Part shown: positions 4,839-38,042 of the stretch, one piece after another
Numbering within the stretch: position 1 is the first letter of the stretch
Layout: every line of letters starts with the position of its first letter
DNA from: an uncultured Phycisphaerales bacterium
Lineage (GTDB): Bacteria > Planctomycetota > Phycisphaerae > WQYP01
Direction: 5' to 3'
DNA: 64,000 nt
Assembly: GCA_903845195.1 (NCBI GenBank)
Contig: CAIMWO010000031.1
Coordinates: 69,207 to 133,206 of the forward strand
Notes under the pieces: generated by a model
The model's input: the letters and a program-made list of their open reading frames with translations, nothing else
Told to the model about the DNA's origin: nothing
Database searches by the model: none
Translations under genes and position numbers: made by a program

Positions 4839-6313
4839 GGGGACGGCTTACAGGGCGGATGGCAGAAAGAAATGATTCTACCGCCGTCAGGCACCGCCGT
4901 CGCATGGCCCTGCAACCGATGGCTCACCGAACAGCGGAAATCGTGCTTCCCTACGCCAGCAGGCAGGCAGAGTCTGCTGCGGCGGGCGATGCAGGATTGG
5001 GGAGATATTTCTATTGTTTCTGCGCAAGATCGCCTCGATTCAAGCGTATACAGTGGGGAGGACACACCTATGGAATCACTTGCCCCGCCTTCTCATCCCA
5101 CCTCCTTTGCAGGCATCCTTGCCCTGCTGGACCCCAACCGGCCAATGGACGACGACCTCACCCGCCTGTTGGGCGATCTGGTATCGCTGGCCGAAGAGGA
5201 TTTGAGCTTCATCCCTTACCACCCGCCCCGTAACCCCTCCGTCTCGTCTCCAACGTCGCTTTCTGGCAATGACCTGCATGGCCCAGCAAAATAAAATCAT
5301 GCGGGGGGGTAGACCGGCCCCATAGGGGTGTTGCGCAATGCCAAAATGGGAACCCGCCATGGATATCCTGTCACACTTTTAACCCGAGGCGTCTGTTGTC
5401 CGGGCCGTTTTTTATGGCCCAAAAAGCAAGATCACAAAATCTAGTCTGGGGCAAAAATGCGGCCCCGGCCCCGTAACGCCCACTGCCAGGTGAGTCTCAC
5501 ACGGGCTTCCCATTCATCCAACGGGCCAGAAAACGTCATCGGCTTCGGAGGTTTTGCATCCGGATGGAGGATGCAGGAGGAAGCCTGCGGAGCTGGTGCC
5601 GCCTCCGAAACCTTCGAGTCCACCAGAGAAAGGCGGCTTTTGTGTGGGTTGTACTTCTGGCGGGAATCCATGCCGTTATTTGCTTGGCCCGTTTTCGTGG
5701 CGGTGAAAAAGCGGAGCGGCGTATCTATGCACCTCACGTGGGTGATTCACTTTCGCGTGATCGGGTTAAGACAAAATGCACAAGAGGATGGAGGAGGAAA
5801 TGCGGGGGCGATGGAAGAGAGAGCCATGGAAACCATGCTCACATCCGACACTATTCTTGACGGTCACAGGATGCAACCTGCGATTTACGCCATCGAACAC
5901 ATCTCATCGGGGAAACGGCTGATTTGCTCAACACGTTGCCTGTCAAAACGGTTGTGGGACCAGCGCCGTCGGCTGGATCGCCGCCAACACCCCAACCACG
6001 CTTTGGATGCCGAACTCACACAAGGTGGACCCGAAGGGTTCATCATCGTCGTGCTGGAGCTGGTCGAGGACCACCGCACTCTTCCCCAGCGAAAACGTCA
6101 CCATCTTGAACAGGCGAGGGCTGGGAATGGGACGTTCAACGCTCCAGAGCCATCCTGCAGGAAGGCTGTCATGGTGGCACCAACGGCCGCTCCGATGACC
6201 GGGGTAAACGAGCTACTGGATCGGCTTGATCAACTTGAGCGGATGCCTGCGGATTCATCTGAAGACCGAGCGGCACGGGTGAAAGCACTGATCGAGGAGG
6301 TCCGCAATCGGCT

Positions 6314-7114
6314 TCATCCCTGATGCCGGACTTTCGCGACTCTCTTCTCGATCTGCTCCATCACGTATTTCAGGGGTTCGGTTTGGTCCTTGGCTCCAAT
6401 CCACACCCCCGCATCATTCACATCTCGAATGGCGGGCAATATGGCAGCCAAATCCGCATCTGAAAGCGCAGAAAGAAGTTCAAACCGACACCGACGACCA
6501 TAGTTGGCCTGCGGGGTCGATTCGCAGGGAGAGAGTATCTCGGGCAGGCCATACTTCTCCGCAAAGGCCGTGGCGTCCTTGGCAATCCGTCTTCCTTCGG
6601 CTGCCTTCCGCTTCTGCTCCAGCTTTGCAGCTTCCTCACGCTCTCTTTGCTGGCGGGCCTCCTCCAAAGCCTTCGGCATGGCCAGAAGGCATGAGATGGC
6701 ATCTCCGACGTGCTGGCGCAGCTTCTCAATCCACACCTTGGCTTGACGTTCGTTGCGCAACACGTCCATAGCCTCGTAGATCGTCTTTGCCTCAGCCTCT
6801 GGCTTTCCTTGTGTGACCATCATCAACTGGGGAAAGAGTTCAGACAGGAAGTCCCTCCGAACGATCCGTCCCCAGTCAACCTGGCGAGGAGTTCCCAACA
6901 GGAGGGGCAAGTGGTATTCACGCTCGAATGGTGGAACGTTATCGGGGATAAGAATCGGTTGGGGAACGGGAACACACACCACTGCCTGCACAGGCGGATT
7001 TGGAGGAATGCACGCCATCGGTTTCTTGGCCTTCTTACCCTTCCTGACATTCGTGATCTTCTTCTTGGCGGGTTGTTTGCCCACGTCATCCCAATCAACT
7101 AGACCGTCCGACAT
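6314..7114 (-). CDS. Hypothetical protein (element-associated), with a charged coiled-coil-like central region.
   Basis: ORF track 6314..7183. Internal ATG at 7114 is preceded by a GAGGTGA RBS. Co-directional with the Prim-Pol gene and 63 nt downstream of it. Confidence 0.5.
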   Translation of the reverse strand: MSDGLVDWDDVGKQPAKKKITNVRKGKKAKKPMACIPPNPPVQAVVCVPVPQPILIPDNVPPFEREYHLPLLLGTPRQVDWGRIVRRDFLSELFPQLMMVTQGKPEAEAKTIYEAMDVLRNERQAKVWIEKLRQHVGDAISCLLAMPKALEEARQQREREEAAKLEQKRKAAEGRRIAKDATAFAEKYGLPEILSPCESTPQANYGRRCRFELLSALSDADLAAILPAIRDVNDAGVWIGAKDQTEPLKYVMEQIEKRVAKVRHQG

Positions 7115-7248
7115 AATCGTCACCTCAACTGTTACCTGTTTTATCGACCTGCCGGGAGATGCAACCCAGCCCAACTGCTTCAAGAGAGAAGCAAAGCAAA
7201 GAAGGAGGTACTATTACGCTACCCCCCTTTAGCGTCTCAAAAATGGCC

Positions 7249-9066
7249 CTATGCGGCGTTGGACCAGGCAGTTCCGGCCACGATCTCTTTGACTTCAGTG
7301 GAAACGGTGAACATCGTTCCTTCGCTCTGACCAGCCTTCATATCCAGGCGTCCCTTCTTGATGATGCGGATTAGGCCACGTTTCTGGAGTGCCAGAAGGC
7401 AGGGGGAGATGGCGTTCATGCACAAGGTTATGGACGCTGCCTCTCTCATGAACCCTCGCAACGTGTCGTGCGAAAAGAAGGGGTCCGTGTTGTCCTCGGC
7501 GAGCTTGGCCAGCACGAACAGTACGCCAGCCATTTGGGCAGGGCAGACTGCTTTGATCTGGGGCCGCTTCCCCTTGGTCTTGTATTTCTTGAACGGCACG
7601 ACGATCCCCTCGACCAGTCGCTCGAGTCCCAGGCGTGCCTTCTCCCATCCCTCCATATCGATCCCCGAAGTCATCGCGGAATCGAATTTTCCTTCATAGA
7701 AATGTTTCATCCCTTGGAAGGTCTTCAACCTTCGTTCAGAGTTGTCGGTCTTGTTCAACCCAAGGACAACGTATTGTTCATTAGCTTCTTCCGGGCTGAC
7801 AAGTTCCCGTTCACGGCGACACAGCAGCTTGTAGAAGCCATTCAGACGTGCGAAATCCGCCTTGGGATCTGTGGATGCCTTTAGAAGACGGAGTTCCTCG
7901 ATCTGCTCCTCAAAGGTGCGGCGGCGGTAGAAACTCACGTACCGAGCTTCCCCTACACTTTCCCACACACTGCCATCAGAGTCGAAAAGATCCGTTTCTG
8001 AGCTACCAGCGGGGGGTAGTGTAATAATACCTTTATCATTGCCTTGCCTCTCTCTTGCTTGAGTGGGCTGAGGAATCGGCTCACGTACCTGGAAGTGGTC
8101 AATCAAGTAGACAGGAGAGAAGTGAAACTGCCGCACATCCTCAAGCGTGAAGAAGTAGGGCAGCTTCATGCAATATGAACGTTTGATCAGCAGTTTCTTC
8201 TTCACCCACAATGAAGGGAGGCCGAAGACACGACGGTCGATCTTGGCATTGAAGCCTTTATGGATGCGAAGGGAGTCGAGGTCCGACAGGAACAGCTTGA
8301 GCTTGTTGGTCAGGCAGACGAGATTGTAGACGACTTTCGAGGGATCGTGCATGGAGTAGGCCGTTTTGATGTAGAGGTGGAACCCGTTGCCGTGGGTTGA
8401 CCTCTCCCAGTAGGCGTCAGGGAAATACGTCCCATGGAGCCACTGGAAGACAGCCTCGGCATCATTGACAGTTCCCATAGGGTACTGGTCCTCGTGGAAG
8501 TCGATGTCGATGGTGAGGAGGATCGCACCGACTGGGTAATCCACTCGTTCTGTGTTTACACCCAATGCCTCGGAGAACACTGTCGAACTCGCTTGTCGGG
8601 CCGACGCACCGAATCCCGTGAAGTACGGCGACGCCAGTTCACCCCGGTAGTAGATGAATTGCCGCTCTACCTTCGCATCCTCTTCCTCGGGATTCTCTTT
8701 CTGGGAGATTCCATACTCCCTGTGTAGCTTGAAATCGCCTTTCGAGAGTCGATCCAACCCAACTTCTCCACCATCGGAATCGTTGGGATTACAGCGAACG
8801 ATTCCGTACTTGCCGTCTCCCTTCTGGCCAAACTTTGCGGGAAGCCCTTGCCACTTGAGCAGGATGTCATCGTTGAGATTCATGGGGGAGAAATACTTGT
8901 CGGTCTTGAGGTTGCAGTCCATGACGTTGAAGAAGGGCTTCAGGGCGTACCAGCCTGCCTCGGTTACGATGTCGTATGTGGTCCTTTCGCGAGACTTCGC
9001 TGCCACCGCGACGTTGGCGTCCGTCTGCGGCGGTTGATCCGCATGCTTCTTTCTGATGTGTGCCAT
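7249..9066 (-). CDS. Replication initiation protein of the archaeo-eukaryotic primase / Prim-Pol type with a C-terminal winged-helix-like region. Typical of plasmid/phage/integrative elements.
   Basis: 605 aa. Motif I hhhDhD = ILLTIDIDFHED. Motif II sxH = STHGNGFHLYIK. C-terminal basic/helical region. Confidence 0.55.
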   Translation of the reverse strand: MAHIRKKHADQPPQTDANVAVAAKSRERTTYDIVTEAGWYALKPFFNVMDCNLKTDKYFSPMNLNDDILLKWQGLPAKFGQKGDGKYGIVRCNPNDSDGGEVGLDRLSKGDFKLHREYGISQKENPEEEDAKVERQFIYYRGELASPYFTGFGASARQASSTVFSEALGVNTERVDYPVGAILLTIDIDFHEDQYPMGTVNDAEAVFQWLHGTYFPDAYWERSTHGNGFHLYIKTAYSMHDPSKVVYNLVCLTNKLKLFLSDLDSLRIHKGFNAKIDRRVFGLPSLWVKKKLLIKRSYCMKLPYFFTLEDVRQFHFSPVYLIDHFQVREPIPQPTQARERQGNDKGIITLPPAGSSETDLFDSDGSVWESVGEARYVSFYRRRTFEEQIEELRLLKASTDPKADFARLNGFYKLLCRRERELVSPEEANEQYVVLGLNKTDNSERRLKTFQGMKHFYEGKFDSAMTSGIDMEGWEKARLGLERLVEGIVVPFKKYKTKGKRPQIKAVCPAQMAGVLFVLAKLAEDNTDPFFSHDTLRGFMREAASITLCMNAISPCLLALQKRGLIRIIKKGRLDMKAGQSEGTMFTVSTEVKEIVAGTAWSNAA

Positions 9067-9310
9067 GTGTTCCTCGACTGCTCACGGCTTGGCCGAAAAG
9101 CAATGACGCCCGCCACTGCGGACCAGCACAGTGACGGGCGTCAGCGATTGGGATTAATGGATCGAGCCGACGTACTGGTCCACGCGGCGCTATATTTCTC
9201 TATTCGAGGAGACGACCGGCGTCACCTTCTAGGCCAAAGATCATCGCAAACTGCCATGCAAACAGCGGCTTGCAGATGCGTGCCGGGCAGATGGATGTGC
9301 GCCGTTATCG

Positions 9311-9757
9311 CTACGGTGTCGTCACTACACCAGGTTCCTCATACATGTCGGGCAGAAGACGTTGCAGGAATCGCATTTCCTGCTCTTCGTCATATGTCTC
9401 CTTACGCTTCCTCCACGCTTCCATCTCTTCGGGTAGATCGCTCGGTGGTCCAATCATCTCATCCCGCCATCCCGTGATGTCCAGCGAAGCCAAGGCGTCT
9501 GCTCCGAACTTCTCGGAGTAGCACGAGTAACAGAGGCTCAGGATTATGTCAGTGCGTTCGCCGTTGTCGATCTCTGAAAGGATCACCCCTTCCTCCGGAC
9601 CACACCGCTGCACCCATTGCACCGTTACCATCGCCACCTCGCGAGTCTGCAACTGCGCCTTGCTAATTTTGCATTGTGTGCATGTCGCGTGGTCATCGTT
9701 GTCTGGCCTGTCAAACCAAGTCTTTTTTTCCATCGGTTTCCCTTTCCATATAGGCAT
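9311..9757 (-). CDS. Small Cys-rich hypothetical protein.
   Basis: 148 aa. CxxC (CTQC) and CYSCYS motifs. Same strand as neighbours. Confidence 0.4.
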   Translation of the reverse strand: MPIWKGKPMEKKTWFDRPDNDDHATCTQCKISKAQLQTREVAMVTVQWVQRCGPEEGVILSEIDNGERTDIILSLCYSCYSEKFGADALASLDITGWRDEMIGPPSDLPEEMEAWRKRKETYDEEQEMRFLQRLLPDMYEEPGVVTTP

Positions 9758-9910
9758 GTGGCATCACTCCCATTACTGCTGGGCCAGGAGCAGCTCGTGG
9801 CATCGTGGGCGATTCCGTTAGGCCACTGACGGCTTACACGGCTCCTTCACAAGCGTAAAGCAGTTAGCGTTTCTTGCGTTTCCTCTTCCGGTGCCGGGCA
9901 TATGTCCTAC

Positions 9911-11188
9911 CTAATCTTTGGATGGATAGATACGCTTCGGCGGCTCATCCGCTTCAAGCGTCCTCCAGGCTCCCTCGGCAAGTTTATCAATTGGACATGC
10001 AAGAACTCGGTAGTCTGAGCGACGGATGCCCTCTACAGTGACTACGAGGTGTTCTTGTGCCAGCTGACCACTACCTACAGGCAGGGTGCGCTTGGTAACA
10101 GCTGCGATGAGCCGGGGCTTTTTGGCCAGGCAAAAGCTTCTGGCCCATGAGTACCAACAATCTGACATATCGTAGTTTTCGTTGTCGTCGGGATCTTCGA
10201 CCGGGGCTTTTGTTTCCATCATCCAAAACCATCCCTCAGGTTGGATATCTAAGTACATGAGTATCGGAGAAGAAGTGAAATGATACGTATCTAGGTGAGC
10301 AAACGGAATTGACTTGAGCAAGAGTCGCACAGCTTCATCAGTGGTTTGGTCGCACCCGGTATCAACATTTTCCTCAGCTCTCATCATCGTCTCTAGAATG
10401 TACGGAATTGTGGCGCAGACGTCTGGAGATTCAAGACGGAAGTCCTTAACGCTGCGGTAGTGTCGTAAGAGTGCTGTCTTTCCTTCGACTGGAATATGCA
10501 AAATGTGTCGATCCTTTGGCTCTGCAACTGACTGAAATAGAACGCCCGCGAAGTGCCCGATTGAGTGGTAATGTCCGAGGTACATAAACGTGGTATCGGG
10601 CTCGATCATCGACAGGACCGCTTGAACGGTTTCTTCAGCCAGGTGCAGACCGGCCTCTCGAATCTCGGCGATGACTTCGTGAAGTTGGAGCAGTTTCTCT
10701 GGTAGTGGAGGTTGCTTCCCTTCGCCAAGAGAGTAGAGCGCCGGAGAAGGCTCGCCGTCGATATTATGCGTCGCCATTTCTGGTTGTTCACTAAGTGTGC
10801 CGTCACTATTGATAGACCACACTAGCTGATACTCCTTAGTTGGATTGGCCAATTGGATCGAAAGTGAGCGTTCGTCTCCTTGTTCCACCAGAGTCACCGC
10901 AGCTGCCGCTTCGGGAGTGATTGAGCAAATTGCGAGGAGTATTGCACGACGTAGCCACTTGGCGTACTCATCGCGGTCTTCCCGGAGACCTTCGTCACTA
11001 TCGGACATCTCAATATGGACACCGTCCCATGTACCATTCGTAAAGACCTGAAGTACGCACGGAGCCGCAAGACGCCTGCCCATCGACTCCCATTGGGTGC
11101 GGAAGTCTCGCAAAAAAGAGTTGAATATTTTGTTATCGGGGAACATTTGATTAGTCTCCATAAATTGAATGCCGGTATGACTTGCCAA
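9911..11188 (-). CDS. Hypothetical protein (425 aa).
   Basis: Long ORF with ordinary composition, tightly spaced with the downstream and upstream genes. Confidence 0.5.
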   Translation of the reverse strand: MASHTGIQFMETNQMFPDNKIFNSFLRDFRTQWESMGRRLAAPCVLQVFTNGTWDGVHIEMSDSDEGLREDRDEYAKWLRRAILLAICSITPEAAAAVTLVEQGDERSLSIQLANPTKEYQLVWSINSDGTLSEQPEMATHNIDGEPSPALYSLGEGKQPPLPEKLLQLHEVIAEIREAGLHLAEETVQAVLSMIEPDTTFMYLGHYHSIGHFAGVLFQSVAEPKDRHILHIPVEGKTALLRHYRSVKDFRLESPDVCATIPYILETMMRAEENVDTGCDQTTDEAVRLLLKSIPFAHLDTYHFTSSPILMYLDIQPEGWFWMMETKAPVEDPDDNENYDMSDCWYSWARSFCLAKKPRLIAAVTKRTLPVGSGQLAQEHLVVTVEGIRRSDYRVLACPIDKLAEGAWRTLEADEPPKRIYPSKD

Positions 11189-11198
11189 GGGGGCATTT

Positions 11199-12395
11199 TC
11201 ACAGCCCCATTTCCTTCATTTCGGCGGGGCTGGGGAAAGCTTCGACCCTCCACCTCTCCGGATAGGTTCCCAGTGGTTGCATGCGATATCCCATAACTTG
11301 ATGCACTCGTTCCCATAAAACGTTACCGTACACAACTCGTTCTTGATCGCCGGCGGCGGGGTTAGTGAATACCACATATGTCACCTCTGGAAGCAGCGTC
11401 ACGTAGTCGCGCATCCAAAAAGCCAACGTGAATTCATCGATACATGTTTCTCCGATGAAAACACTGGCGATGACGTCCACATCCTGGCAATATGCCAACA
11501 GTTCCCTATTCTTGTCTTGATGTACATAATGAGACGCAAGACTGCGGAGTCGAAGCTCACGGAATGGCGAATAGACCGACGAGCATTCGGGCGGGATGAA
11601 TGTTTTCCAGGTCCCGCCACTGCGAAGTAAGGGAATGCCACTTAGAAATCGCGGGCCTTGTCGGCGAAGCTTGGCGATCGTCGCCATTTCGGCAAGTGCC
11701 GGCTCGTTGTTGGCGGGAGCCACCAGAAGGCAGTCACGATGAGGAATCATTGCTACCAGATCATCGTGTAGCGCTCCGGGTACGAGCTCGTCCAAGATCG
11801 TTAATCGAGCACTATCATAGTTATCCTGCCAGGGAGAGATCATTAGGCCACTGGGCCGGCGAATTAACGCCTTAGTACTAACCCGCCGCAGATTCTCCTT
11901 TGCAACGGCAATGGCTTCTTCGAACGAGATGCTCAATTTCAGCAATTGCGCCTTGTCGAGGAACATAATGTGATCCGGCAGATCGCGAGCGATTTCGACC
12001 GTGACATGATCGCCGAGTAGTTGATACGCGGGCGCCGATGCGTGCGCGTATTTGACGGGTTTCGGAGCCAATGTCCGATATAGGATATCCACGATCGGCA
12101 GGAGGTGGGGTCGCATTGACTCCAGCGACGCGCTTGCTACCATTTCCCAATTCTGCGTCCAACCGTGAGCGATGTCGCGGATTGTTGTACTTGCCTTTGC
12201 AGACGACCATTCGCGATAGACATTTTCCAGAAGTAGCGTCGTGCCTCCGGAAATATCGATCTGAAAGTTGTCGCGGTCATACGTGATGGCTAGATTGCCC
12301 CTGCAACTTTTCATAGCGTCGATCATCGCTTGCGCGAATTGATCTCGAGCCTGACTGTCGGATACGTTTCCACTAGAGTGCTGTTTCTCATACAT
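11199..12395 (-). CDS. Hypothetical protein (~398 aa).
   Basis: ORF track 11199..12482. Internal ATG (MYEKQHSSG...) is preceded by an AAGGAG RBS at optimal spacing. 10-nt gap to the upstream gene's stop. Confidence 0.55.
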   Translation of the reverse strand: MYEKQHSSGNVSDSQARDQFAQAMIDAMKSCRGNLAITYDRDNFQIDISGGTTLLLENVYREWSSAKASTTIRDIAHGWTQNWEMVASASLESMRPHLLPIVDILYRTLAPKPVKYAHASAPAYQLLGDHVTVEIARDLPDHIMFLDKAQLLKLSISFEEAIAVAKENLRRVSTKALIRRPSGLMISPWQDNYDSARLTILDELVPGALHDDLVAMIPHRDCLLVAPANNEPALAEMATIAKLRRQGPRFLSGIPLLRSGGTWKTFIPPECSSVYSPFRELRLRSLASHYVHQDKNRELLAYCQDVDVIASVFIGETCIDEFTLAFWMRDYVTLLPEVTYVVFTNPAAGDQERVVYGNVLWERVHQVMGYRMQPLGTYPERWRVEAFPSPAEMKEMGL

Positions 12396-12405
12396 TCTAT
12401 TCTCC

Positions 12406-12759
12406 TTAAAGTTGATGAAGTGACGTGTAGACTGACGCCTCACGCACGAGCGCTTCGGCGAGCTTGAGATTCCCGGTATCAATCAGCAGTGCCCAGGTGT
12501 AACCGTTATCTGTCGTGTCTGGGGCCAAAGTGTCGATCCCGAAACCGAGCTCGGTGATACCCGCGGCGCCTACGCGTTGTCGCAGATAGTCAACCTGTTC
12601 CCGGGCATAAACGGACTGGCAGTACCCGGTGTTCCCATATATCCCAACAGCGTCTTCTGTTATCGCGAGGCAGCCAATACGAGACTCGAACCAATACCGG
12701 CAGGCATAGTTCGCCGTGTCGATAGCTAAGTTTCGCCACCAAATGTGGTCTCGTGACAT
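12406..12759 (-). CDS. Small hypothetical protein (117 aa).
   Basis: Complete ORF packed between neighbouring genes on the same strand. Confidence 0.4.
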   Translation of the reverse strand: MSRDHIWWRNLAIDTANYACRYWFESRIGCLAITEDAVGIYGNTGYCQSVYAREQVDYLRQRVGAAGITELGFGIDTLAPDTTDNGYTWALLIDTGNLKLAEALVREASVYTSLHQL

Positions 12760-12844
12760 GAGAATCTCCAGTGATTCCGGATAGTTGATACGTACCTCGA
12801 GGGCCGCGAACGCGCGTTCGCGTTACCATCACGCCATTAGGGAT

Positions 12845-13342
12845 TCATCCCGCCCTCTCGATCAATCGATCGGGTGCCATGCTGGCGAGGATGTTGCCAA
12901 GAGAAGTTTGCATTGCTGCGATCTGTTGGCGGGCCTCAGTGGCGGTATGGCGCCACGCATAGTTGCATTCGGTTTGCTCCGCGATCAGACGTATGATCGC
13001 ATGCGCGTGTTCGAGTCTGTCGAGCACATTCCGTTGCCGGTCAAGCACCGAAGCGTGCTCGTGCCGAATCTCAACGGCGAGCGACTCCATGTTGTCCTGC
13101 CTGGGGGCCGAAGTCGAAGGCGGTGTAGATACCACCTGGCCGGGGGACGTGACCTCAGGGGCAGACTCGCCAGCACGCGTATCCTGCTTCGAATCAGGAG
13201 TCGCGGGTGTCGGTAGGGTAGTCTCAGCGGCTGATGACGATGCCGTCGAGAATACGTCGGCGAGAGGAGGCAGTTGATTCGTCGGTAGCATGACTCCTGC
13301 CTCCTGAGTAGGGGTCGCGTCGGCTTGCAGTGCCGTATTCAT
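12845..13342 (-). CDS. Hypothetical protein (~165 aa). N-terminal half is Thr/Pro/Ser-rich.
   Basis: ORF track 12845..13504. The ATG at 13342 (MNTALQADATP...) has an AGGAG RBS. Confidence 0.4.
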   Translation of the reverse strand: MNTALQADATPTQEAGVMLPTNQLPPLADVFSTASSSAAETTLPTPATPDSKQDTRAGESAPEVTSPGQVVSTPPSTSAPRQDNMESLAVEIRHEHASVLDRQRNVLDRLEHAHAIIRLIAEQTECNYAWRHTATEARQQIAAMQTSLGNILASMAPDRLIERAG

Positions 13343-13591
13343 AATGACTCCTGGATTCCAGTACTGGACGCGGTGGCGGGCGTCTGTCGCAGCAGGCGAG
13401 TGTCGCCTGATATAGAAATGGGGCATTTTGTGCGTGTCTAGTGACACGTGGTGACGTACCCTTGGCGTACCCTTATTGAAAAGGGCGAAGCGAAGGGCCA
13501 TCATCGAAGGTTGGCAAACACTTAACGACCGGCGGGAGTGATGCCGATCACGGGTGAGACAACCATGCGCCCGGCAGGACGAGATTCGTCT

Positions 13592-15028
13592 TCAGACATA
13601 CCAGTCCAGCCAAGTGGCCGGTTGGTAGCTGTAGGATGCCTTGCCATGAACTGGCCGTATGCTATTTCGCAAATACAGGGAGCAGTGCGGCATGGTTTTG
13701 CTGATCTTCTCCCGACAGTCCTGCATGCGTGCTTTCACGCGGCGGCGTGCTGCTTCTGCCTCCGACTTCGATCCCTCTTCCCCCGCTTTCCTTGCTGCCT
13801 TAGCTTCGCGAAGTTGCTGGCGAAGTTCATCCACATTCTCCGCGCCGGTGTCTACCGCAATCTCCAGTTCGTCTGATAGTAGTTTTTCCTCAGCCGTCAG
13901 CAACTCGTTTCCCGCGTCTGTCGCAAATGAATCGGATTCGTCGGATCGTTTGTTGCTTCGCCGCGATGCACCTGCAGCGCCAAGGTCTGCGGGGTCGATG
14001 TGTTTTGACCGGTCCTTTATCCGCGTCACGTCTGCAGCTGTTGCTGCTTTGCCAGACGGACTTTGCTCCAAGCAACTAACCGGGTCACCTCGGCGTCGAA
14101 GAATCTCCGCAATGTATTGGAAACCCAGTGATGCTTCGTCCATGAAGGAGTCTTCCTCCGTTGTCGCTGCATCGACTCTGAACCGCAGATGCCATCTGCC
14201 TCTTTCAAGATGAAACATGTAATCGGGCAATGTAGAGGTCTCGACCGTCGAAGTTGTGGTCGTAATAGTCATCGGCACTTCTACTGGAGCGGATTTCAGT
14301 TCGATCGGCAACTTCGGCAGTTCCCGACCCAGCTCGCCCCCCTCCTCCATCTGGATCACCCACGGATTGAGTAACAAAGCGCGGTCCGGGTCGAGGATCA
14401 TCTCGATTGCCGTGATCGACACGCGAAACAGATCAGGCGTCAGCGTCTCGCAAGAGCTGGTCATCAATTCAAAACGACCCTTATTTTCAGCCCATTTCAA
14501 CGGGCCAGAGTCTTCCAGCCAATCGTCATCACACCACGTCTTAATGCTGTGCTCTGTCCGAAGAAGCGGTTGGGGATAGCGGGCGGCGATGTGGTAAACA
14601 AGTTCAAGAAATCCCGGCCAGCCCTCCATCGTTAGGGCAATCCGACTGCGCATTTCGTTTTGGACAGCACAGGCACTTCCGGCCAGATGCTTGAATTGCT
14701 GCAACCCTTTCCCGTTTCCAAAGAATCGCCCGTACCAATCCCCGTCTTGTCCTGAGCCAGAATCGTGTGGGGGGGGGTCATCGTATTTGAGGATGGGAAA
14801 ATGCGACTTTACGGGGCCGTGCCATTCCTGCCACTTGCCGGAAGTTAGAGCGTGCCCTACCTCGTAAATCTTGCGGGCTTCGTACGTGACGCCTGCGCCA
14901 CGATGTTGGCTGTCGTAAATCCGTTGGTGATAAAGTGGGTGAGGAAAGGCCTTTGCTGCGCGCCGAAATTCACGGAGCAGTGCGTTCCAGTTGAATCGAA
15001 ATGGTTCAGCCATCATCACCTCAGTCAT
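13592..15028 (-). CDS. Hypothetical protein (478 aa) with an acidic/coiled-coil C-terminal region.
   Basis: Long ORF on the same strand as the element genes. No recognisable motif. Confidence 0.5.
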   Translation of the reverse strand: MTEVMMAEPFRFNWNALLREFRRAAKAFPHPLYHQRIYDSQHRGAGVTYEARKIYEVGHALTSGKWQEWHGPVKSHFPILKYDDPPPHDSGSGQDGDWYGRFFGNGKGLQQFKHLAGSACAVQNEMRSRIALTMEGWPGFLELVYHIAARYPQPLLRTEHSIKTWCDDDWLEDSGPLKWAENKGRFELMTSSCETLTPDLFRVSITAIEMILDPDRALLLNPWVIQMEEGGELGRELPKLPIELKSAPVEVPMTITTTTSTVETSTLPDYMFHLERGRWHLRFRVDAATTEEDSFMDEASLGFQYIAEILRRRGDPVSCLEQSPSGKAATAADVTRIKDRSKHIDPADLGAAGASRRSNKRSDESDSFATDAGNELLTAEEKLLSDELEIAVDTGAENVDELRQQLREAKAARKAGEEGSKSEAEAARRRVKARMQDCREKISKTMPHCSLYLRNSIRPVHGKASYSYQPATWLDWYV

Positions 15029-15270
15029 GTCGCCATTTCAGATTCTCGTTGTGATCCGCGATGCAAACAGGACTAGATTAACGCGCAGACACTCGTGACG
15101 CATCTTATGCACCTTCGGGCCCAAAAAGTCGATCCCACCCTCTACTTGCCCTTGGAAAATAATGCGGCTGGGCATTCTACTTGTCTATCCGTAGCTTTGT
15201 TGCCGCGTTTGTAGCATTGAATATAGTGTGTTCTCCCTTTCTTGATTGTTGGTGATGGATTGACTGGCCT

Positions 15271-17736
15271 TCAGGACACGTTGGCAGCGACCTTCTCGGC
15301 CTTCTTTTCGGGGCCTACGAGTTCCATGGCGCGGATATCCTCACGGCGATGCCGTATATCTGCCTCTACCGCTTTTATGTCAGTGGAGTAGAGGCGACAG
15401 GCCTTCTGTACTTGCCTCTGCGCGGTCGGATCAGGTCGCTGGCGCGCGGCAGGATACGTTTGAAACACAAAGGCGTCAGTTGGTCCTGTCGGTGTGAGGA
15501 GTCGTGCGGCAGCATGGAAATTCGGCAGTGTTTGGAGGTCTGCCGGTCCGAAGTTTGGGCGCGAGTAGATGGCCAGCTTTTCTGCATCTGGGGCGCCGAG
15601 TCGAAATAGAACCATGCTGCCGACATTCCCCAGCACCGAATTCACAAGATTCTCCTGTCCCTTTCCGACCGACAACTGTGTTAGATTTTGATTGGCAAGC
15701 GTTAGGCACAACCCGAATTTTCGCGACTCTGAGAGAAGCGATGCCGTGGCATCGGTAGTGAAATTCTGGAATTCGTCCACGTACACCATGAGCGGTTTGC
15801 GTCTGCTTGTCGCCATGTTCAGCCTACTCATCGCCGCGCACATGAGCTTAGTTAGCACGATCATCCCGAGTAGGCGCATATCAAGTTCGCCCAAGGCACC
15901 ACGGGATAGATTTACCAACAGTATGCGGCGGTTATCCATAATCCCGCGGAAATCGACTGTGCTCTTGGTTTGCCCGATGATGGGCCGGAGTACGGCGTTA
16001 TGTACGAATCCATTTAACTTTGAAACGATGTACGGCGCGATATTTGCCAGTCTTGCTTCTCCTCCAGCGGCGTCGGCCATTTTCCAGAAGTCCGCCAGCA
16101 GAGATGGTCCGCATCGCTCAAGCATCGCCTCGCGATACCTTTTGTGTTCAAACACCGCCGACATATCGACCAGGGTGCCCTGGTTGTCTGGATCCGCCAT
16201 GATCAATTGAAGTGCCCCCCGGAAGTACTGCTCGAACATGGGGCCGCCGCATTGTTTCATATCGTAGAGTTTCTCTAGAATCGCGAAGACTTCGTTAATA
16301 ACGAAGTTGACCTGCATTTCCCGGTAAGGTTCTGTGCAGTCGAGTAAGTTGATCCCGACGGCTCGTTTGCGATCGCAGGGGTCCAATAGAACGACGTCGC
16401 CTGCGCGGTGTGCAGGGATGGACGCGCGTACCTGACGGTACAAATCGCCGTGCGGATCAATGAGGCAAACTCCCTCGCCGTGCTGAATATCCTGCATTAC
16501 CAGGTTGTAGAGCAGGGTCGATTTTCCTGTGCCGGTGGCTCCCAGAATGTAAAGGTGGTGGCTCCGTTCTTTTCGGCACAGCTTAACGGCCTGCTCAGTT
16601 TGGCCATCTCGGATGCATCCCATCCTTGCGCCAGTCTTGGGGAAGCCCAGTTTCTCTCTGTTAAAGAATCGACGAACGCCATGCTGGGCCAATGCCTCAG
16701 GTGGTGGAAAAAGGGAGGGAAGGGGAACTGTTGAGGGGATGCAGTTTCTCAGGTCAAGAAAGTGATTCGTCAATGCTGCCACCGCGCTGTCACTGCCCGC
16801 GCGATCGCCTTCGGCGCGACGAGAGAAAACGCGGGCGGTGCCGTGGTAGATCTCGCCAGCAAGCATCCTCAGGAATGATTCGGAGATGGGATGTGACGAT
16901 GATACCGAGCACGTCACGCGACAACCGGCCAAGGTCTTGAGCCAGACATTTGCGGCATTTTCCAGATGCGCTGGAAGCTCGCTGTTTAGGCTTCGGTTGA
17001 GGATAAAATCTTGGGCCGACTTGATCACATGCTCTTGTGTCCGGTTGAGATGGCAGGATTCCAGTGCGATCGAAATTCGCATAGGTACGTGGCTGGATAC
17101 CAGGAGTTTGACTATTGAACTAAATGCCCGAGCGCGTTCATTTGTGTAATGAGGGAGCCAAACAGTGGTATCGGTTTCTGTGGCGGACTCACCGAATCCA
17201 AAGAGTCCCTTGGTGAACTCCACATGTGTACCCTCTGGCTGGATCAGCCCGATCCACTTGTCTCCGACAGTGCGTAATTGGGTTGCGGCGTTATCCGAGA
17301 GTGGTCGGAACCGGTAGCAAGTCTTCTGGCTTTCCAGGACGGTCATCAGGGCATACCGGACATTTCGCAACTGCTCACCTGCTTGCGCGGCAGATTCGCC
17401 GCTCGACGCCTCTCCGAAAATACGCCACCGTAGGGGCGACTGACCTCCTCCCTCGTAGACGAAAATTACCTTCTGCTCAGGGTCCAAAACCGACACGAGA
17501 GAAGACATCATGCGATCTTGCTCTGACGCCGCCTCAGCACCAAACGCGTCAACCAAGTCAGTGCCCGAGTGAGGGCGAGCCGTGACGCTAACAACCTCGT
17601 ATCCGCACCAAGCCACGTGTCGGTGACATTCCGCCTGTTGCTCAACCGTTTCAGAGCATCGCTCATTCCGCGTTCCGCGGATCGTCGATTCCACGGAAGT
17701 AGCTACGGCTTGGATATGTCCGGCAAAGTGTTCCAT
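15271..17736 (-). CDS. P-loop ATPase of the FtsK/HerA/TraG-VirD4 (DUF87 / type IV coupling protein-like) superfamily. Possible conjugative DNA-transfer or DNA-pumping ATPase.
   Basis: 821 aa. Walker A HLYILGATGTGKSTLLYN. Walker B LMVYVDEFQNF, followed by FGLCLTLANQNLTQL. ATPase sits in the C-terminal half and the N-terminal half is novel. Confidence 0.6.
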   Translation of the reverse strand: MEHFAGHIQAVATSVESTIRGTRNERCSETVEQQAECHRHVAWCGYEVVSVTARPHSGTDLVDAFGAEAASEQDRMMSSLVSVLDPEQKVIFVYEGGGQSPLRWRIFGEASSGESAAQAGEQLRNVRYALMTVLESQKTCYRFRPLSDNAATQLRTVGDKWIGLIQPEGTHVEFTKGLFGFGESATETDTTVWLPHYTNERARAFSSIVKLLVSSHVPMRISIALESCHLNRTQEHVIKSAQDFILNRSLNSELPAHLENAANVWLKTLAGCRVTCSVSSSHPISESFLRMLAGEIYHGTARVFSRRAEGDRAGSDSAVAALTNHFLDLRNCIPSTVPLPSLFPPPEALAQHGVRRFFNREKLGFPKTGARMGCIRDGQTEQAVKLCRKERSHHLYILGATGTGKSTLLYNLVMQDIQHGEGVCLIDPHGDLYRQVRASIPAHRAGDVVLLDPCDRKRAVGINLLDCTEPYREMQVNFVINEVFAILEKLYDMKQCGGPMFEQYFRGALQLIMADPDNQGTLVDMSAVFEHKRYREAMLERCGPSLLADFWKMADAAGGEARLANIAPYIVSKLNGFVHNAVLRPIIGQTKSTVDFRGIMDNRRILLVNLSRGALGELDMRLLGMIVLTKLMCAAMSRLNMATSRRKPLMVYVDEFQNFTTDATASLLSESRKFGLCLTLANQNLTQLSVGKGQENLVNSVLGNVGSMVLFRLGAPDAEKLAIYSRPNFGPADLQTLPNFHAAARLLTPTGPTDAFVFQTYPAARQRPDPTAQRQVQKACRLYSTDIKAVEADIRHRREDIRAMELVGPEKKAEKVAANVS

Positions 17737-18202: not shown

Positions 18203-19381
18203 TTAGCCCCGTGGCGCTTCGCAGGTGGAAGCCAGCCGGACCATTCCTCGAAATGGGTGTCGCCGTAAGAACGCTACAGTGAAATACAATAAGAGCAGCG
18301 TCCCCGTACCGACGAAGACACTGGCGACCACGATTTGGGCCCCCCGTTTAGAATTCCAGCTACGATCTGCAACCATCAAGAAGCAGAATCTGTCGCCGAC
18401 CGTTTCCATGCCTATTTCATCCACCCGATCCAACCGTTCTGGGTCGTGCATCCGATCCCAAATTGTGCTCTTCCTGGCGTCCCATGCCGCAATGGATGCA
18501 ATGTCGCGGAACTGCACCGGCGGCGTAAGAGGGAAAGTGATTCCATTCCCGATGATGGCCTGATTTTCCGTGCGCGTCCGGAGCAATCCATGACTGGTGG
18601 TCAGTTCCAGGAAAAGATCCCATTTGTGGGGCGGCAGAAGCCGTAACTCTATTCCCGGTTTGGCGGTCAGTCGTATGGCTTTGACTAGTGCTGCATTTTC
18701 CGCCGACGGGCCGACTAGGAGAATGACGGCGCCCAGTGCTAGGGCGAACACACCGACCGCGATTCCAAGCCGATGTGCGTGACGATTCCATCGTGGCCCC
18801 TGTATTGCCTGCACAATCGCTTTAGACGCCGCATCATCGTCACCCCCTGCTTCGGGCATACAAGCAGCTGCGGCACCCGACAGGAAAACCGCCGAGCAAA
18901 ATACGATGGTTCCGGATCCAACATTCACATCCATGATGCTGTGCAACATCAGTGTGTCTCCCGTCTTGACGACCACAACCATCACCGCGGCAACGAACAC
19001 GTCGAGCATGGAAAATCGTGCCAGTGATCTGGCCGACGCCAGCAATTGCCGCCGTACCGCCAATGGAAATACGGGGATTAACGATGCTCCCCCCGCCACC
19101 ATCAGCAGTTTGACAAAGGGAAAGACAAAGCTAAAAACGAAAATCACGGTCCCAAGTACGATATTTCTCTGACGAAACAGTTCCACGATTCCGCCCAAAA
19201 TCGTGTAGTCATACTGCCTGCCAAACTGGCGCATCACGATAAACGGGAGTTCGTTGGCCAGGACCAGCATTCCAAATGCCAGCACGCACAGCGTTAGGGC
19301 GAACAACTCGCGGCGAAATGTCATACGCCGTACTGACTGAGAATCAGTCGTGTTTCTCGAATGGGTATCTGGGACTAGCAT
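18203..19381 (-). CDS. Integral membrane protein, tentatively PqiA-like (paraquat-inducible protein A family).
   Basis: AAGGTAAGG RBS upstream of 19381. Segment ILGGIVELFRQRNIVLGTVIFVFSFVFPFVKLLMV resembles the PqiA signature. Multiple TM helices. Confidence 0.4.
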   Translation of the reverse strand: MLVPDTHSRNTTDSQSVRRMTFRRELFALTLCVLAFGMLVLANELPFIVMRQFGRQYDYTILGGIVELFRQRNIVLGTVIFVFSFVFPFVKLLMVAGGASLIPVFPLAVRRQLLASARSLARFSMLDVFVAAVMVVVVKTGDTLMLHSIMDVNVGSGTIVFCSAVFLSGAAAACMPEAGGDDDAASKAIVQAIQGPRWNRHAHRLGIAVGVFALALGAVILLVGPSAENAALVKAIRLTAKPGIELRLLPPHKWDLFLELTTSHGLLRTRTENQAIIGNGITFPLTPPVQFRDIASIAAWDARKSTIWDRMHDPERLDRVDEIGMETVGDRFCFLMVADRSWNSKRGAQIVVASVFVGTGTLLLLYFTVAFLRRHPFRGMVRLASTCEAPRG

Positions 19382-19526
19382 CGTCTCGACCTTACCTTAG
19401 TGGGCGTAGCTGCAAGCTCTCGGTCTTACAAATTTATCGGCTGACAGAACCTTGGCTGAAATATGAGTCAGGCCTAGGGGTTGTGCGTCCGTTTAGTTTC
19501 GCCAGTGCTTTAGGTGCGGGAGCTGT

Positions 19527-20876
19527 TTAGGGAGCTGGCAGAAGGATAACGCTCACCCGCGTGGAGGAAATGGGCACGGGCTCTTGAGGCATAAAATGCA
19601 ACGATTTGCCATCCGACAACGTCACACTGACGCGTAAGTCATGCGGCGCGATCTGTCCTGCTGCGAATCCTGATGGAAACGGTGTAACTTCGGAAAGCTG
19701 TGCGTCGTTGTTCGCGCCACACACCGGGATGCGGAATTCAGCGTTCCGAACCATTCCATTGAGCATCCAATGACAGGTCACAAACACGTCAAGTTGCCGC
19801 GTATTGATCGGTACGTTCATAATCTGGAGCGATGGTTTACTTGGACTTGGCGGCGGTGCAATAGTTTCCAGTGTTTCTTTCCGCTGAATTGTTGACGATA
19901 GGGCCATAGGCTGCACTCGCTGATAGGATGAGAATTGGCCGTCATTCCATTGAATAATTAGCAGATTATCTCGTCCTGGAATCTTGGTGTCGGCGAATTT
20001 AGGCGGCAAGCGCAGTGTATTACTGCTATGGGTCCCCTTGTCCACGTCGAATGTGAGTCGTTCGCGGCAGATTCGCGAGGGAACATCATGAGAATCGCGA
20101 AGAGTTAGGGTCGTCATCAGCTTCTCGGCTCCAGCCGGAACGTTGAAGTATTGAATCGATGGACCGACAACGATCATCGAAGCGTGTGTTTGGGTGATTA
20201 TTGGGACGGACTTTGGAGGATTGGCCGGGAAAGGGTTAGAGAGGCTTAGGGACAGCTCCTGCATCCTCTGGACCGGCGGTTGCCGTCCAACTTTCGTGGA
20301 ATCCGTGATGGCGCAAGGGGCTGACTTCGTGGGTACATCCGGGGCCTTAATAGGTGTTTGAACCGCGATCGTAAGAGGCTCGGAGGGGCTGTGAAGCATC
20401 GACGTTCGTGCATCCGCGTCCTTCGTGCAGATGAAACCTTCTGCCCCCTCCGGATCCGCGAGGATCGTATTTCGAATATCGTCCGCTCGTCCTGTGTCAT
20501 TAGTAGCCATGGATACGGGTCGTGAGTTGAATAGGGGCTCATCGGAACGAAGCGGAGGCGACATAGCTGGTGCAGAGTTGCTTGGGCGCGTCGTGGGCAT
20601 ACGCTGATTTAGGTCGGAGATGATGTTGTTGAGGATTGTGTCGCGCTTCCGGTCGGCATTTCGATGTTGCGTCCAGGCACGAACCACGGGATCCGTTGAG
20701 GGCGCAACGGGGGGAAGAGTCGATTCCGCCGAATTGACGGGGGCCGATGGCGCTGAGATTGGACTCGCAGCGCTGGATTTTGGGAAATTGGCCTCCCACA
20801 GGGTTCTGCCGTAGCGGTTCCAGCCGATGATCCCAAGTACCAGTATGCCAATGATCAATAGCAGTCGTTTAATCAT
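19527..20876 (-). CDS. Secreted/membrane-anchored hypothetical protein (449 aa). The N-terminal ~100 aa is duplicated at 35527..35913.
   Basis: Strong AGGAGG RBS. N-terminal signal/TM MIKRLLLIIGILVLGIIGW. Ser/Pro-rich linker. Confidence 0.55.
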   Translation of the reverse strand: MIKRLLLIIGILVLGIIGWNRYGRTLWEANFPKSSAASPISAPSAPVNSAESTLPPVAPSTDPVVRAWTQHRNADRKRDTILNNIISDLNQRMPTTRPSNSAPAMSPPLRSDEPLFNSRPVSMATNDTGRADDIRNTILADPEGAEGFICTKDADARTSMLHSPSEPLTIAVQTPIKAPDVPTKSAPCAITDSTKVGRQPPVQRMQELSLSLSNPFPANPPKSVPIITQTHASMIVVGPSIQYFNVPAGAEKLMTTLTLRDSHDVPSRICRERLTFDVDKGTHSSNTLRLPPKFADTKIPGRDNLLIIQWNDGQFSSYQRVQPMALSSTIQRKETLETIAPPPSPSKPSLQIMNVPINTRQLDVFVTCHWMLNGMVRNAEFRIPVCGANNDAQLSEVTPFPSGFAAGQIAPHDLRVSVTLSDGKSLHFMPQEPVPISSTRVSVILLPAP

Positions 20877-21090
20877 TTCTTCGCCTCCTGAGTCGGATCC
20901 ACTTCGAGATGCCAGTCTCCACCCGAGTTGACAAGTCTTGCATGCACTTGTTCGAACCTGCTGTTTTTGTAAGTGAGATCCGATACGTCGCGAGGAAATA
21001 TTCCTCGAAACGATCGTCTGTAATACCTGCGTGACAACTTCTGCTCCGAAAGACCTCCACCAAAGGTTGGATCGCGTTAACCGTGCTCAA
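20869..21090 (-). pseudogene. 73-aa ORF spanning a deletion junction. Its 3' ~85 nt are the tail of the gene homologous to 35910..36878, read in a different frame. Probably not a functional gene.
   Basis: DNA identity of 20869-20960 with 35910-35996, but the stop falls in another frame (ND* versus DPTQEAKK*). Confidence 0.25.
20955..21045. repeat. Dispersed copy of the ~85-bp element also found at ~37975-38060 (upstream region of the second locus copy).
   Basis: Near-identical string gtgagatccgatacgt.gcgaggaaa.attcctcgaa.cg.tcgtctgtaata.ctgcgtgacaac at both sites. Confidence 0.5.
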
Positions 21091-21408
21091 AAGAGGGCCG
21101 ACAGACGCAAGGATGATTCCATTGAAGGAAGCTTTTCGTGTGGCGCAACACGTAACGCATAAGCGACGGTGCAGCCTTGCTCTCGGCAGGCTCCCCCTCT
21201 ATTAGGCTCGAACCAGCTCTGACCCCCAACCGACGATTGTTAAAGGAATAAGGCTGTCCAGTGAAGCAGTTTCAATGGCATTATTACGGTAAAATGAGGT
21301 CTGATACCACTAACCGGCATTACTATAACTGCATAATTTGTAACCAGTTACGATAACGTAAACACCTATGGGCGTATTTTGTGACACAATGCGTCACGCT
21401 ATGCTTGT

Positions 21409-22389: not shown

Positions 22390-22408
22390 ACGATAGGACT
22401 GTTCAATC

Positions 22409-23263: not shown

Positions 23264-23266
23264 CCC

Positions 23267-25657: not shown

Positions 25658-25658
25658 C

Positions 25659-27923: not shown

Positions 27924-27930
27924 GGACGTA

Positions 27931-30230: not shown

Positions 30231-30252
30231 CAAGGTTATTTCGGGGTGCGGC

Positions 30253-31446: not shown

Positions 31447-31454
31447 AGGCTCAA

Positions 31455-33544: not shown

Positions 33545-33867
33545 CTGGCGTGATAGCCAGATCAAGTGTTTGGGGCGCAATGCTCGGAAGACCTATCATC
33601 GGTATTGCCTGAAATCCGCTTCTTTTCGCTTTTCATTTTGGTCCGTCCATTTCACCACCCATGCGCCAATGTCCGTTTCGGCGCTGAAGTAATACCCTTG
33701 CTCCTGCAGATGTGATGGGACGATTCGTGCCACTGGGCTGGGCCTGCTGGTTGTTGAAATGGATCCCCCCGTAATGAAATGCAGGGAAACACCTCATTTG
33801 GCAATGCCGATAACAGAAGGGCATTTGACCAATGATGCTCTCAAACTCTTAATCTTAGGATCGCCGC

Positions 33868-36878: not shown

Positions 36879-36956
36879 GAGAGATCCTCCATGTCTGTGT
36901 TCATGTAAGAAACCACGGCGGCTTCGCCAGCCGTGGCCCCCTCTCCGCCTTGTGGT

Positions 36957-37976: not shown

Positions 37977-38042
37977 GGTAAACCTGCCTTTTTTGTTAGT
38001 GAGATCCGATACGTTGCGAGGAAACATTCCTCGAACCGTTCG

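Follow-up and report, generated by a model that had tools for sequence, protein, structure and literature searches.

A nine-gene array encoding a soluble conjugation-type ATPase and a divergent AEP-like protein in a probable Phycisphaerae chromosome

A probable chromosome of the Phycisphaerae (Planctomycetota) contains a genuine array of nine soluble genes on one strand, two of them of the kind found on plasmids. We favor, at a probability of roughly 45%, a reading in which a plasmid-like element left the array behind as a remnant that is now fixed and non-autonomous, within a variable region of larger extent. Nothing shows that the array can still move. Mobile elements of the Planctomycetota are poorly known.

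If the remnant reading holds, the winged helix of a 605-aa protein would bind a specific site, where the AEP core of the same protein may prime or initiate DNA synthesis in the manner of plasmid Rep-primases, and a hexameric ATPase would move a DNA or nucleoprotein substrate. Lacking a recombinase, a relaxase, an att site and any channel component, the unit would be unable to excise or transfer alone, and would now be a stable part of the genome of this lineage.

Gene content of the array

The array lies in a 64-kb stretch of DNA, called the window here (Table 1). The sequence-only reading placed ten genes in 6314-17736; a recount of the ORFs gives nine, all on the minus strand, with which independent gene callers in three metagenomes agree. 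The genes are genuine. A 466-bp gap precedes the first of them and a convergent gene follows the last, with gaps of 150-250 bp and a terminator-like hairpin inside the array. The co-directional run does not end at 17736 as first thought, and extends to 20876 through the genes for a PqiA-like protein and a 449-aa protein. No paralogy was found between block proteins, and the base composition of the block is that of its flanks; only genes past 51.7 kb deviate.

Table 1. Features of the array and its surroundings (positions within the window)
Feature	Positions	Strand	Basis or remark
250-aa gene, convergent with the array	5571-6323	+	outside the block
266/289-aa basic protein, last gene of the array	6314-7183	-	phrog_16123
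605-aa divergent AEP-superfamily protein	7249-9066	-	motifs and models
Hairpin, 17-bp G+C-rich stem, then TTGCTTTTC	9104-9143	-	~40 nt upstream of the AEP start codon
148-aa acidic protein, two CxxC pairs	9311-9757	-	sequence
411/425-aa acidic protein	9911-11188	-	no family match
398-aa conserved hypothetical, weakly DUF1444-like	11199-12395	-	profiles and tblastn
117-aa protein	12406-12759	-	no family match
165-aa acidic protein (219 aa if upstream ATG)	12845-13504	-	sub-threshold Pfam only
473/478-aa soluble protein	13592-15028	-	no homologue found
821-aa soluble ATPase, TrwB/VirD4-VirB4 superfamily	15271-17736	-	profiles, PDB search, model
Upstream same-strand continuation, two genes	18203-20876	-	adjoins the block in every contig
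PqiA-like polytopic membrane protein, 392 aa	18203-19381	-	PF04403 8.8e-21
449-aa N-terminally anchored protein	19527-20876	-	TM scan
396-bp direct repeat, left copy	20554-20949	.	right copy 35591-35986
IS3/IS481-type transposase	50175-51338		nearest recombinase to the block

Eight of the genes had been counted as orphans. The 398-aa gene is not one, having full-length homologues in the Burkholderiales; the other six of the seven non-hallmark proteins do lack detectable relatives. Orphan genes are the norm across the 64 kb, since most genes of the window have no Pfam match. The 398-aa protein touches PF07285 (0.0092) and NF010189 (0.0007), both far under cut-off, and tblastn finds it in Variovorax and Burkholderia (3e-20 and 2e-14, 25-26% identity over 88-94%), the Variovorax copy being a lone gene amid housekeeping genes. 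The 473/478-aa protein has a charged, probably helical C-terminal third; Pfam, NCBIfam, PHROGs, PADLOC, PDB and plasmid and phage tblastn searches returned no homologue, and the members of its 90% cluster all belong to the same species. Nothing matched the 411/425-aa protein in Pfam, PHROGs, NCBIfam, PDB sequences or plasmid and phage tblastn, and PDB sequence searches with four orphan proteins were likewise negative. The 266/289-aa protein matches phrog_16123 (5.5e-6, unknown function) and otherwise nothing, plasmid and phage tblastn included. PEP-utilisers_N is the sole, sub-threshold match of the 165-aa (219-aa) protein. Neither the 117-aa nor the 148-aa protein matched a family; by eye, the two CxxC pairs of the latter have the look of a zinc ribbon.

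The two hallmark proteins

The 821-aa protein is a P-loop ATPase of the conjugation and DNA-translocation superfamily, as it was first read, on the evidence of PF10412, DUF87, a PDB profile search and Foldseek. PF10412 matches at 1.4e-11 (44.4 bits against a cut-off of 20.5) and DUF87 at 28.6 bits, over its cut-off; PF02534, which had also been suggested, does not match. TraG-D_C gives 21.7 bits and, in PHROGs, phrog_5156 gives 2.8e-48. The C-terminal motor contains Walker A GATGTGKST at 399-407 and Walker B DEFQ at 654-657, with all family-invariant residues of both kept. TrwB is the best match in the PDB profile search (2.9e-8), and DotL scores 7.5e-6. The AF2 model (pLDDT 78) predicts a folded, soluble N-terminal domain. 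Its top Foldseek matches are TrwK/VirB4 chains (E 4.7e-15, ~850 columns, but TM 0.31 and rmsd 15-20 Å), and its comparison with TrwB gives TM 0.64 and rmsd 5 Å. In PADLOC the ATPase matches mad8 (2.8e-19) over the generic motor domain only, and HerA/DndH weakly over motor regions.

With the type IV coupling proteins (TrwB of R388, VirD4, DotL) and VirB4/TrwK, the ATPase shares the RecA-like hexameric type of motor and the TrwB_AAD_bind and TraG-D_C signatures. Its overall layout of ~820 aa, apparently with two domains, aligns best to VirB4/TrwK, at the low TM and high rmsd given above. It differs from both groups in its N-terminal ~380 aa, which are matched by no library, in line with the first reading, and from the coupling proteins in lacking their N-terminal transmembrane anchor; a TM scan found no transmembrane segment or N-terminal anchor. 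VirB4/CagE family models do not match (TIGR00929 gives 16.6 bits where 643 would be needed), and the protein scores far under every NCBIfam TraD/VirB4 cut-off. Unlike in T4SS loci, no relaxase, VirB3, B6, B8 or other channel gene lies near it.

The N-terminal region is an alpha/beta domain conserved throughout a widespread family of ~820-aa proteins; 781 homologues were found, many spanning 88-99% of the length. Many plasmids carry the C-terminal motor, among them conjugative plasmids of Sulfolobus and plasmids of Streptomyces, haloarchaea and Bacillus. Close homologues sit in conserved clusters quite unlike this array, and one from Bradyrhizobium sits amid CHAT and TPR genes. A PqiA gene occurs 9 kb from the Bradyrhizobium homologue and is missing in the Sulfitobacter locus and all metagenome loci, so we take this proximity to be a coincidence. 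As a separate observation, the usual home of the ATPase family is a conserved cluster that encodes a fused RNA polymerase; a search for literature on RNAP/DUF1257/DUF2997 clusters found nothing.

The 605-aa protein does contain the motifs IDIDFHED and STHGNGFHLYIK, from which it had been called a Prim-Pol protein with PF09250 as the expected family. PF09250 did not bear out: the protein has no Pfam family at E<=0.01, none of 35 relatives matches at E<=0.1, and NCBIfam and PHROGs give no match. The AEP-type catalytic motif set is upheld, and it is common to a rare but real family. Word-indexed searches, with the single sequence and with a profile, recovered nothing beyond the query and a single fragment, and tblastn found no relatives in plasmid and phage collections. 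A degenerate DNA pattern for motif II had one viral and one genome match. An exhaustive search of 1.84 billion representatives found 56 distant relatives, query excluded (57 with it). In an alignment of 35 sequences with a mean identity of 21%, the AEP order of DxD, STxGxGxH and a later Asp is kept, with D187, D189, S223/G228 and D277 invariant and H230 present in at least 90%.

These motifs fall in a core at ~135-325 (D187/D189, E221-S223-T224-G228-H230, D277, K301-P303), on a strand-helix-strand-strand-helix pattern of the AF2 model (pLDDT 81.6). The core is predicted to be followed by a disordered linker (331-382), a helical middle and a C-terminal winged helix (~509-596), the latter resembling many winged helices in Foldseek, including the Orc/Cdc6 WH. 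Foldseek ranks the CAPP Prim-Pol 7nqd_B second among PDB folds (E 0.11, prob 0.57). An hhalign comparison with pRN1 ORF904 picks exactly motif II and is statistically weak. The only Pfam AEP model that the family touches is PF22548 (AEP-TOTE), weakly and sub-threshold, through 3 of 35 members that do not include the 605-aa protein. Support for the AEP assignment from library profiles and fold searches is statistically weak.

Plasmid and phage AEP initiator-primases and their kin (pRN1 ORF904, ColE2-type Rep, CAPP) share with the 605-aa protein the order DxD, sGxGxH, hD, followed by a K/R-x-P strand, and a single polypeptide also includes a winged helix for DNA binding, as the model predicts here. 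Their integrated-element contexts are also seen for its relatives. One relative (locus L009) lies directly after a tRNA-Glu, ringed by HigB/HTH, a large P-loop NTPase and an EVE-domain gene; another, in a Phycisphaerae MAG (L014), lies 2.5 kb from a tyrosine integrase; and one is on an IMG/VR contig. In contrast to these initiators, the 605-aa protein has a ~130-aa N-terminal extension and the disordered linker, and no helicase domain, SF3/D5 included, or PriCT domain is recognized in it.

The hairpin upstream of the AEP gene is predicted to be terminator-like or an operator. As a strong terminator-like structure it divides the AEP gene from the upstream array genes; one of its arms is repeated at 13371-13384, and no iterons or tandem repeats were found around the gene. 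The convergent 250-aa gene probably belongs with the AEP gene, because a homologue (48-51% identity, 106-123 aa) lies immediately downstream of the L009 AEP relative and is also convergent. A GIY-YIG identity suggested by eye for the 250-aa protein is unsupported, since neither this protein nor the homologue in L009 has a Pfam match at E<=1. In no locus examined does a relative of the ATPase occur together with one of the AEP protein, and the remaining seven array genes do not recur beside either.

Boundaries and signs of mobility

The absence of a recombinase or relaxase noted at first was confirmed: searches of Pfam, NCBIfam, PHROGs and PADLOC matched no block protein to such a family, neither block nor window contains a relaxase or VirB family, and no integrase or other recombinase lies within 1-24 kb. 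Nor is there a tRNA target, since no tRNA or Rfam family was found anywhere in the 64 kb. The suggestion that one of the large hypothetical proteins could be a novel integrase or relaxase gained no support from sequence and profile searches, and no Tyr, Ser, DDE or HUH catalytic motif was noticed by eye in the array proteins. No boundary of any kind delimits the proposed 11.4-kb element, and flanking direct repeats within 1-24000 are of chance length only. Presence/absence polymorphism was not seen in a shallow set of same-species metagenome contigs, in which every contig with the flank genes carries the block. All nine contigs read for the 250-aa gene show the gene order of the window, and the left junction is identical in all seven with long enough DNA or gene tables. 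The earlier label "decayed" does not fully fit, since neither hallmark protein has lost any catalytic residue that is invariant in its family.

The surroundings are variable. The 396-bp repeat copies are 89% identical, with the final 110 bp identical, and bound a 15,037-bp segment that is missing in two other assemblies. In these metagenome assemblies the run continues straight into the genes found here at 35910-38063. A T7SS-like toxin cluster lies elsewhere in the window. A prophage was considered and rejected, as PHROGs returned no phage structural or packaging gene, only families of unknown function and a weak P-loop match to terminase. No complete PADLOC defense system is present, and besides the ATPase nine other scanned proteins had no match.

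Origin and meaning of the array

The remnant reading draws on the ATPase, with its family assignment, intact Walker residues and plasmid-borne motor; on the conserved motifs, model pattern and winged helix of the AEP protein, and the tRNA, integrase and IMG/VR settings of its relatives; on a neighborhood with the 15-kb indel, the T7SS-like cluster and the transposase; and on the lack of phage genes. Against it stand the missing boundary, flank-like composition and identical left junction in all spanning contigs, the hallmark relatives that are never co-located, the terminator-like hairpin before the AEP gene, the statistically weak AEP support, and a 398-aa gene with chromosomal, non-mobile homologues. 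A less likely alternative is that there is no functional unit at all and that two hallmark-type genes were acquired or domesticated independently and came by chance to lie in the same co-directional stretch of a planctomycete chromosome whose genes are poorly annotated. The lack of co-occurrence elsewhere, the normality of orphans over 64 kb, the hairpin and gaps inside the array, and the different conserved clusters of close ATPase homologues all fit this. Nine soluble same-strand genes between a 466-bp gap and a convergent gene do not, nor does the conservation of that convergent gene beside an AEP relative, and both hallmark families otherwise occur in mobile or variable contexts.

Unlikely, in our view, is a conflict (defense or counter-defense) module in which the ATPase senses or translocates foreign DNA, the AEP-winged-helix protein is a nucleotide-polymerizing effector or sensor, and the lineage-specific proteins are fast-evolving partners. 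The mad8 and HerA/DndH matches point this way, as do the neighbors of the L009 AEP relative and of the Bradyrhizobium ATPase homologue, the T7SS-like toxin cluster, and the link to TOTE conflict systems (defined in PMC12458937) through their AEP model. However, no complete known system was matched, the mad8 match is confined to a generic motor domain, the AEP-TOTE matches are sub-threshold and exclude the 605-aa protein itself, and none of the proteins was recognizable as a nuclease, methylase or effector of another kind. We consider it very improbable that the array is an active integrative element whose unrecognized recombinase or relaxase is the 473-, 411- or 398-aa protein. Both hallmark genes are intact and several large proteins have no family match, but terminal repeats and a tRNA target are lacking, no catalytic motif was noticed by eye, no recovered contig comes from a block-less strain, and homologues of the 398-aa protein stand alone in chromosomes.

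The array read as a remnant follows a small-element logic similar to that of actinomycete integrative and conjugative elements (AICEs), with a candidate Rep protein, one DNA-translocating ATPase and unknown genes. AICEs such as pSAM2 reportedly encode a Rep, in some cases of Prim-Pol type, a single FtsK/TraB-like ATPase and small unknowns, and are said to carry an integrase/excisionase, a tRNA att site and a membrane-anchored FtsK-type TraB. The array has none of these last three, and its host phylum differs. It is tempting to speculate, as a long shot, that the soluble VirB4/TrwB-like ATPase of ~820 aa is the signature of a class of large elements, so far undescribed and spread over several phyla, each with a fused beta/beta' RNA polymerase of its own, and that a derived copy recombined here with a new AEP-winged-helix initiator to give a minimal replication and DNA-translocation module. 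This would be a single-ATPase transfer system in the Planctomycetota, without relaxase or tyrosine/serine integrase, analogous and unrelated to the actinomycete TraB elements.

A motif-level AEP call can be right even when PF09250 fails, which is a caution for similar work. The practical value is modest and consists of seed alignments for two uncharacterized families, the ATPase and the AEP protein. If the array is a remnant of a plasmid-like element, it would add a primase-type initiator family missed by current profile libraries, and a conjugation-type ATPase family would work without a membrane anchor or recognizable secretion channel. The more interesting lead lies beyond the window, in the fused-RNA-polymerase cluster that usually houses the ATPase family.

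Gene content and population structure of the block

The mobile-element-like block lies on a single strand, as the sequence-only reading held, with nine called genes where ten had been counted. In coordinate order the products have 266/289, 605, 148, 411/425, 398, 117, 165/219, 473/478 and 821 aa, and gene callers returned this same set in three independent metagenome assemblies of the organism. The genes are separated by gaps of 10-257 bp, their GC1/2/3 profiles are coding-like and similar to those of the flanks, and all nine products are predicted to be soluble. The PqiA-like, 449-aa and 322-aa proteins encoded upstream are predicted membrane proteins. The earlier failure to see an integrase, relaxase or tRNA target is borne out, as no block protein matches a recombinase or relaxase family in Pfam, NCBIfam, PHROGs or PADLOC, and the window contains no tRNA, tmRNA or Rfam family. 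The flanking direct repeats once envisaged did not materialize: those around the block are no longer than expected by chance. Its proposed right limit, 17736, marks at most an operon boundary.

Presence/absence polymorphism of the block, also envisaged, was not seen. All nine contigs read with the 250-aa gene keep the window gene order, the two shortest stopping short of the upstream genes. Two further metagenome assemblies of this organism, L024 and another contig without DNA, pass from window position 20949 to 35987 with nothing between and only one mismatch, so a 15,037-bp segment is missing there. In these assemblies, the genes that the window has at 36957-38063 and 35910-36878 lead straight into the 449-aa, PqiA-like and ATPase genes. 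Together with the gene order of the contigs, this joint places the structural polymorphism 3.2 kb upstream of the block, with none of the block itself.

Features of the block and the rest of the window
Feature	Coordinates	Strand	Remarks
250-aa gene	5571-6323	+	convergent to AEP gene
Block	6314-17736	-	nine genes
AEP gene	7249-9066	-	605 aa
ATPase gene	15271-17736	-	821 aa
PqiA-like gene	18203-19381
449-aa gene	19527-20876
Direct repeats	20554-20949, 35591-35986		396 bp; 89% identical, last 110 bp identical; bound the segment
Missing segment	20950-35986		ABC transporter, SDR, hypotheticals, two response regulators
89-nt copy	20955-21043		of 37981-38069 region
Response-regulator paralogues	32225-33544, 33868-35352	+, -	convergent
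Imperfect inverted repeat	32639-32969, 34485-34815		331 nt, 74%; the two response-regulator paralogues
Truncated paralogue of 449-aa gene	35527-35913		128 aa
Genes leading into 449-aa gene where segment is missing	36957-38063, 35910-36878
Tandem repeat	38044-38185		58 nt, 2.4 copies; divergent promoter region
Three small paralogous genes	38898-39260, 39489-39899, 40515-40793		helix-hairpin-helix look; one weakly RNA_pol_A_CTD (precomputed annotation)
Sel1-repeat protein	41070-43286		738 aa; 108-nt periodic DNA repeat at 42180-42773
Type VII secretion-like cluster	43299-48970		probable planctomycete; FtsK-family, EccC/EssC-like ATPase (1141 aa, TIGR03924 3.9e-39); 353-aa HExxH protein, then small possible immunity genes
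Gene with homologue of 198-aa cluster gene	43888-44949		C-terminal half is the homologue
WXG100-like genes	45252-45548, 44968-45237		~90-100 aa; by eye
IS3/IS481-type DDE transposase	50175-51338		rve_3, HTH_21; clear terminal inverted repeats not found; just precedes gene GC3 rise, <=0.69 to 0.74-0.78 (51.7 kb onwards)
Secreted-looking protein	51761-56932		1723 aa; no Pfam match
1419-aa ORF	52724-56983	opposite to 1723-aa gene	probably high-GC artefact

The AEP protein and its relatives

The 605-aa protein carries the motifs quoted for it. Its assignment to PF09250 (Prim-Pol) is rejected for want of any Pfam match, and NCBIfam, PHROGs and PADLOC gave none either. A word-indexed homologue search returned the query alone; phmmer against 1.84 billion representatives gave 57 proteins, the query among them, five of which fall below 1e-30. 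Across 35 aligned sequences (mean column identity 21%), G151, D187, D189, E221, S223, G228 and D277 are invariant, and at least 90% of the sequences keep T224, H230, Y232, P284, K301 and P303. The residue order is that of an archaeo-eukaryotic primase (AEP): motif I DxD, motif II sGxGxH and motif III hD, with a K-x-P strand after them. The order used for this comparison is reportedly that of Iyer et al. 2005. On this motif conservation we accept membership of the AEP superfamily. In the AlphaFold model (pLDDT 81.6), DxD ends a long strand, GxH lies on a strand preceded by a helix-strand unit, and a long helix comes before D277; residues 331-382 form a disordered linker that leads into a helical region and then a winged helix at the C-terminus. 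No helicase domain was found in the protein. A hairpin with a 17-bp stem and T-rich tail precedes the AEP start by ~40 nt.

Relatives of the AEP protein occur on an IMG/VR contig (L013), in Phycisphaerae MAG49 with a tyrosine integrase 2.5 kb downstream (L014), and directly after a tRNA-Glu (L009). The order at this last locus is 152 aa, DUF5131, a 302-aa P-loop protein, 111 aa and AEP, then a convergent 287-aa gene, HigB/HTH, a large NTPase and an EVE-domain gene. The 287-aa gene is homologous to the 250-aa gene of the window (48-51% identity over 106-123 aa). The 250-aa gene is probably a companion of the AEP gene, so the unit may begin at ~5570 and take it in. A conserved 250-287-aa gene is convergent to an AEP gene in two unrelated loci (11905-12768 in L009); its motif (A)IYAIEH..GKRLI.ST..LSKRL looks GIY-YIG nuclease-like by eye, without profile support.

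The ATPase family and the other block genes

The 821-aa ATPase matches TrwB_AAD_bind (44.4 bits vs a cut-off of 20.5) and DUF87 (28.6 bits) in Pfam, TraG-D_C at the borderline, and phrog_5156 in PHROGs (2.8e-48). The NCBIfam TraD, TrbC, CedD and VirB4 models reach its P-loop area only, far under cut-offs. It has 781 homologues, and because many cover 88-99% of its length (35-74% identity), its N-terminal half is a conserved portion of a ~820-aa family. The near-full-length homologues come from MAGs named Phycisphaerae, Nitrospirota, Deferrisomatales and Patescibacteria. Walker A, Walker B and ~55 further columns are invariant in a 40-sequence alignment, and all are kept here. A PDB profile search returned TrwB (2.9e-8), DotL and HerA. 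In the AlphaFold model (pLDDT 78), both domains together best match TrwK/VirB4 of R388 (E 4.7e-15 but TM 0.31), and the motor alone best matches TrwB (TM 0.64, rmsd ~5 A). No transmembrane segment was found. Among plasmids, the C-terminal motor is frequent in those of Sulfolobus, Streptomyces, haloarchaea, Bacillus and rhizobia; a few large Bacillus phages also carry it.

Homologues 64-74% identical to the ATPase, and even those at 39%, sit at the end of conserved clusters, the usual setting of the family, in several phyla (L004, L005, L006, L008, L015, L016). A fused RNA polymerase beta/beta' of only 1580-1891 aa is encoded there together with a ~320-aa protein, an AAA+ protein of the sigma54-activator type, DUF1257, DUF2997 and an AAA protein, and a second, 872-aa DUF87-like ATPase often comes next after the ATPase. 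No description of such clusters was found in the literature searched. The window has none of their genes except a homologue of a 198-aa one.

The 398-aa block protein is weakly DUF1444-like (Pfam, NCBIfam), and its homologues in Variovorax and Burkholderia are lone chromosomal genes; the 148-aa protein carries two CxxC pairs. For the remaining block proteins, the PDB, plasmid and phage collections yielded no relatives; they show no paralogy among themselves, and their 90% clusters hold this species only.

Origin of the block

Both hallmark proteins are intact, and elsewhere their families occur in settings that are mobile or variable. The block itself has none of the features required for autonomous integration, excision or transfer, and an active element with a cryptic recombinase is very improbable. 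It is fixed in the sampled population, whose host, judged by the best hits, probably belongs to the Phycisphaerae. We tentatively favour, at a probability of about 0.45, a remnant of a plasmid-like element, fixed and non-autonomous, in a wider variable region.

The two hallmarks are no recurrent pair: none of the related loci examined has both the AEP and ATPase families, and the other seven block genes do not recur there. A juxtaposition of genes that form no unit is rather unlikely, and so is a conflict module. No new mechanism is demonstrated, and both hallmark families vary known kinds: the AEP-winged-helix family is a variant outside the coverage of current libraries, and the soluble VirB4/TrwB-like ATPase family is an uncharacterised one.
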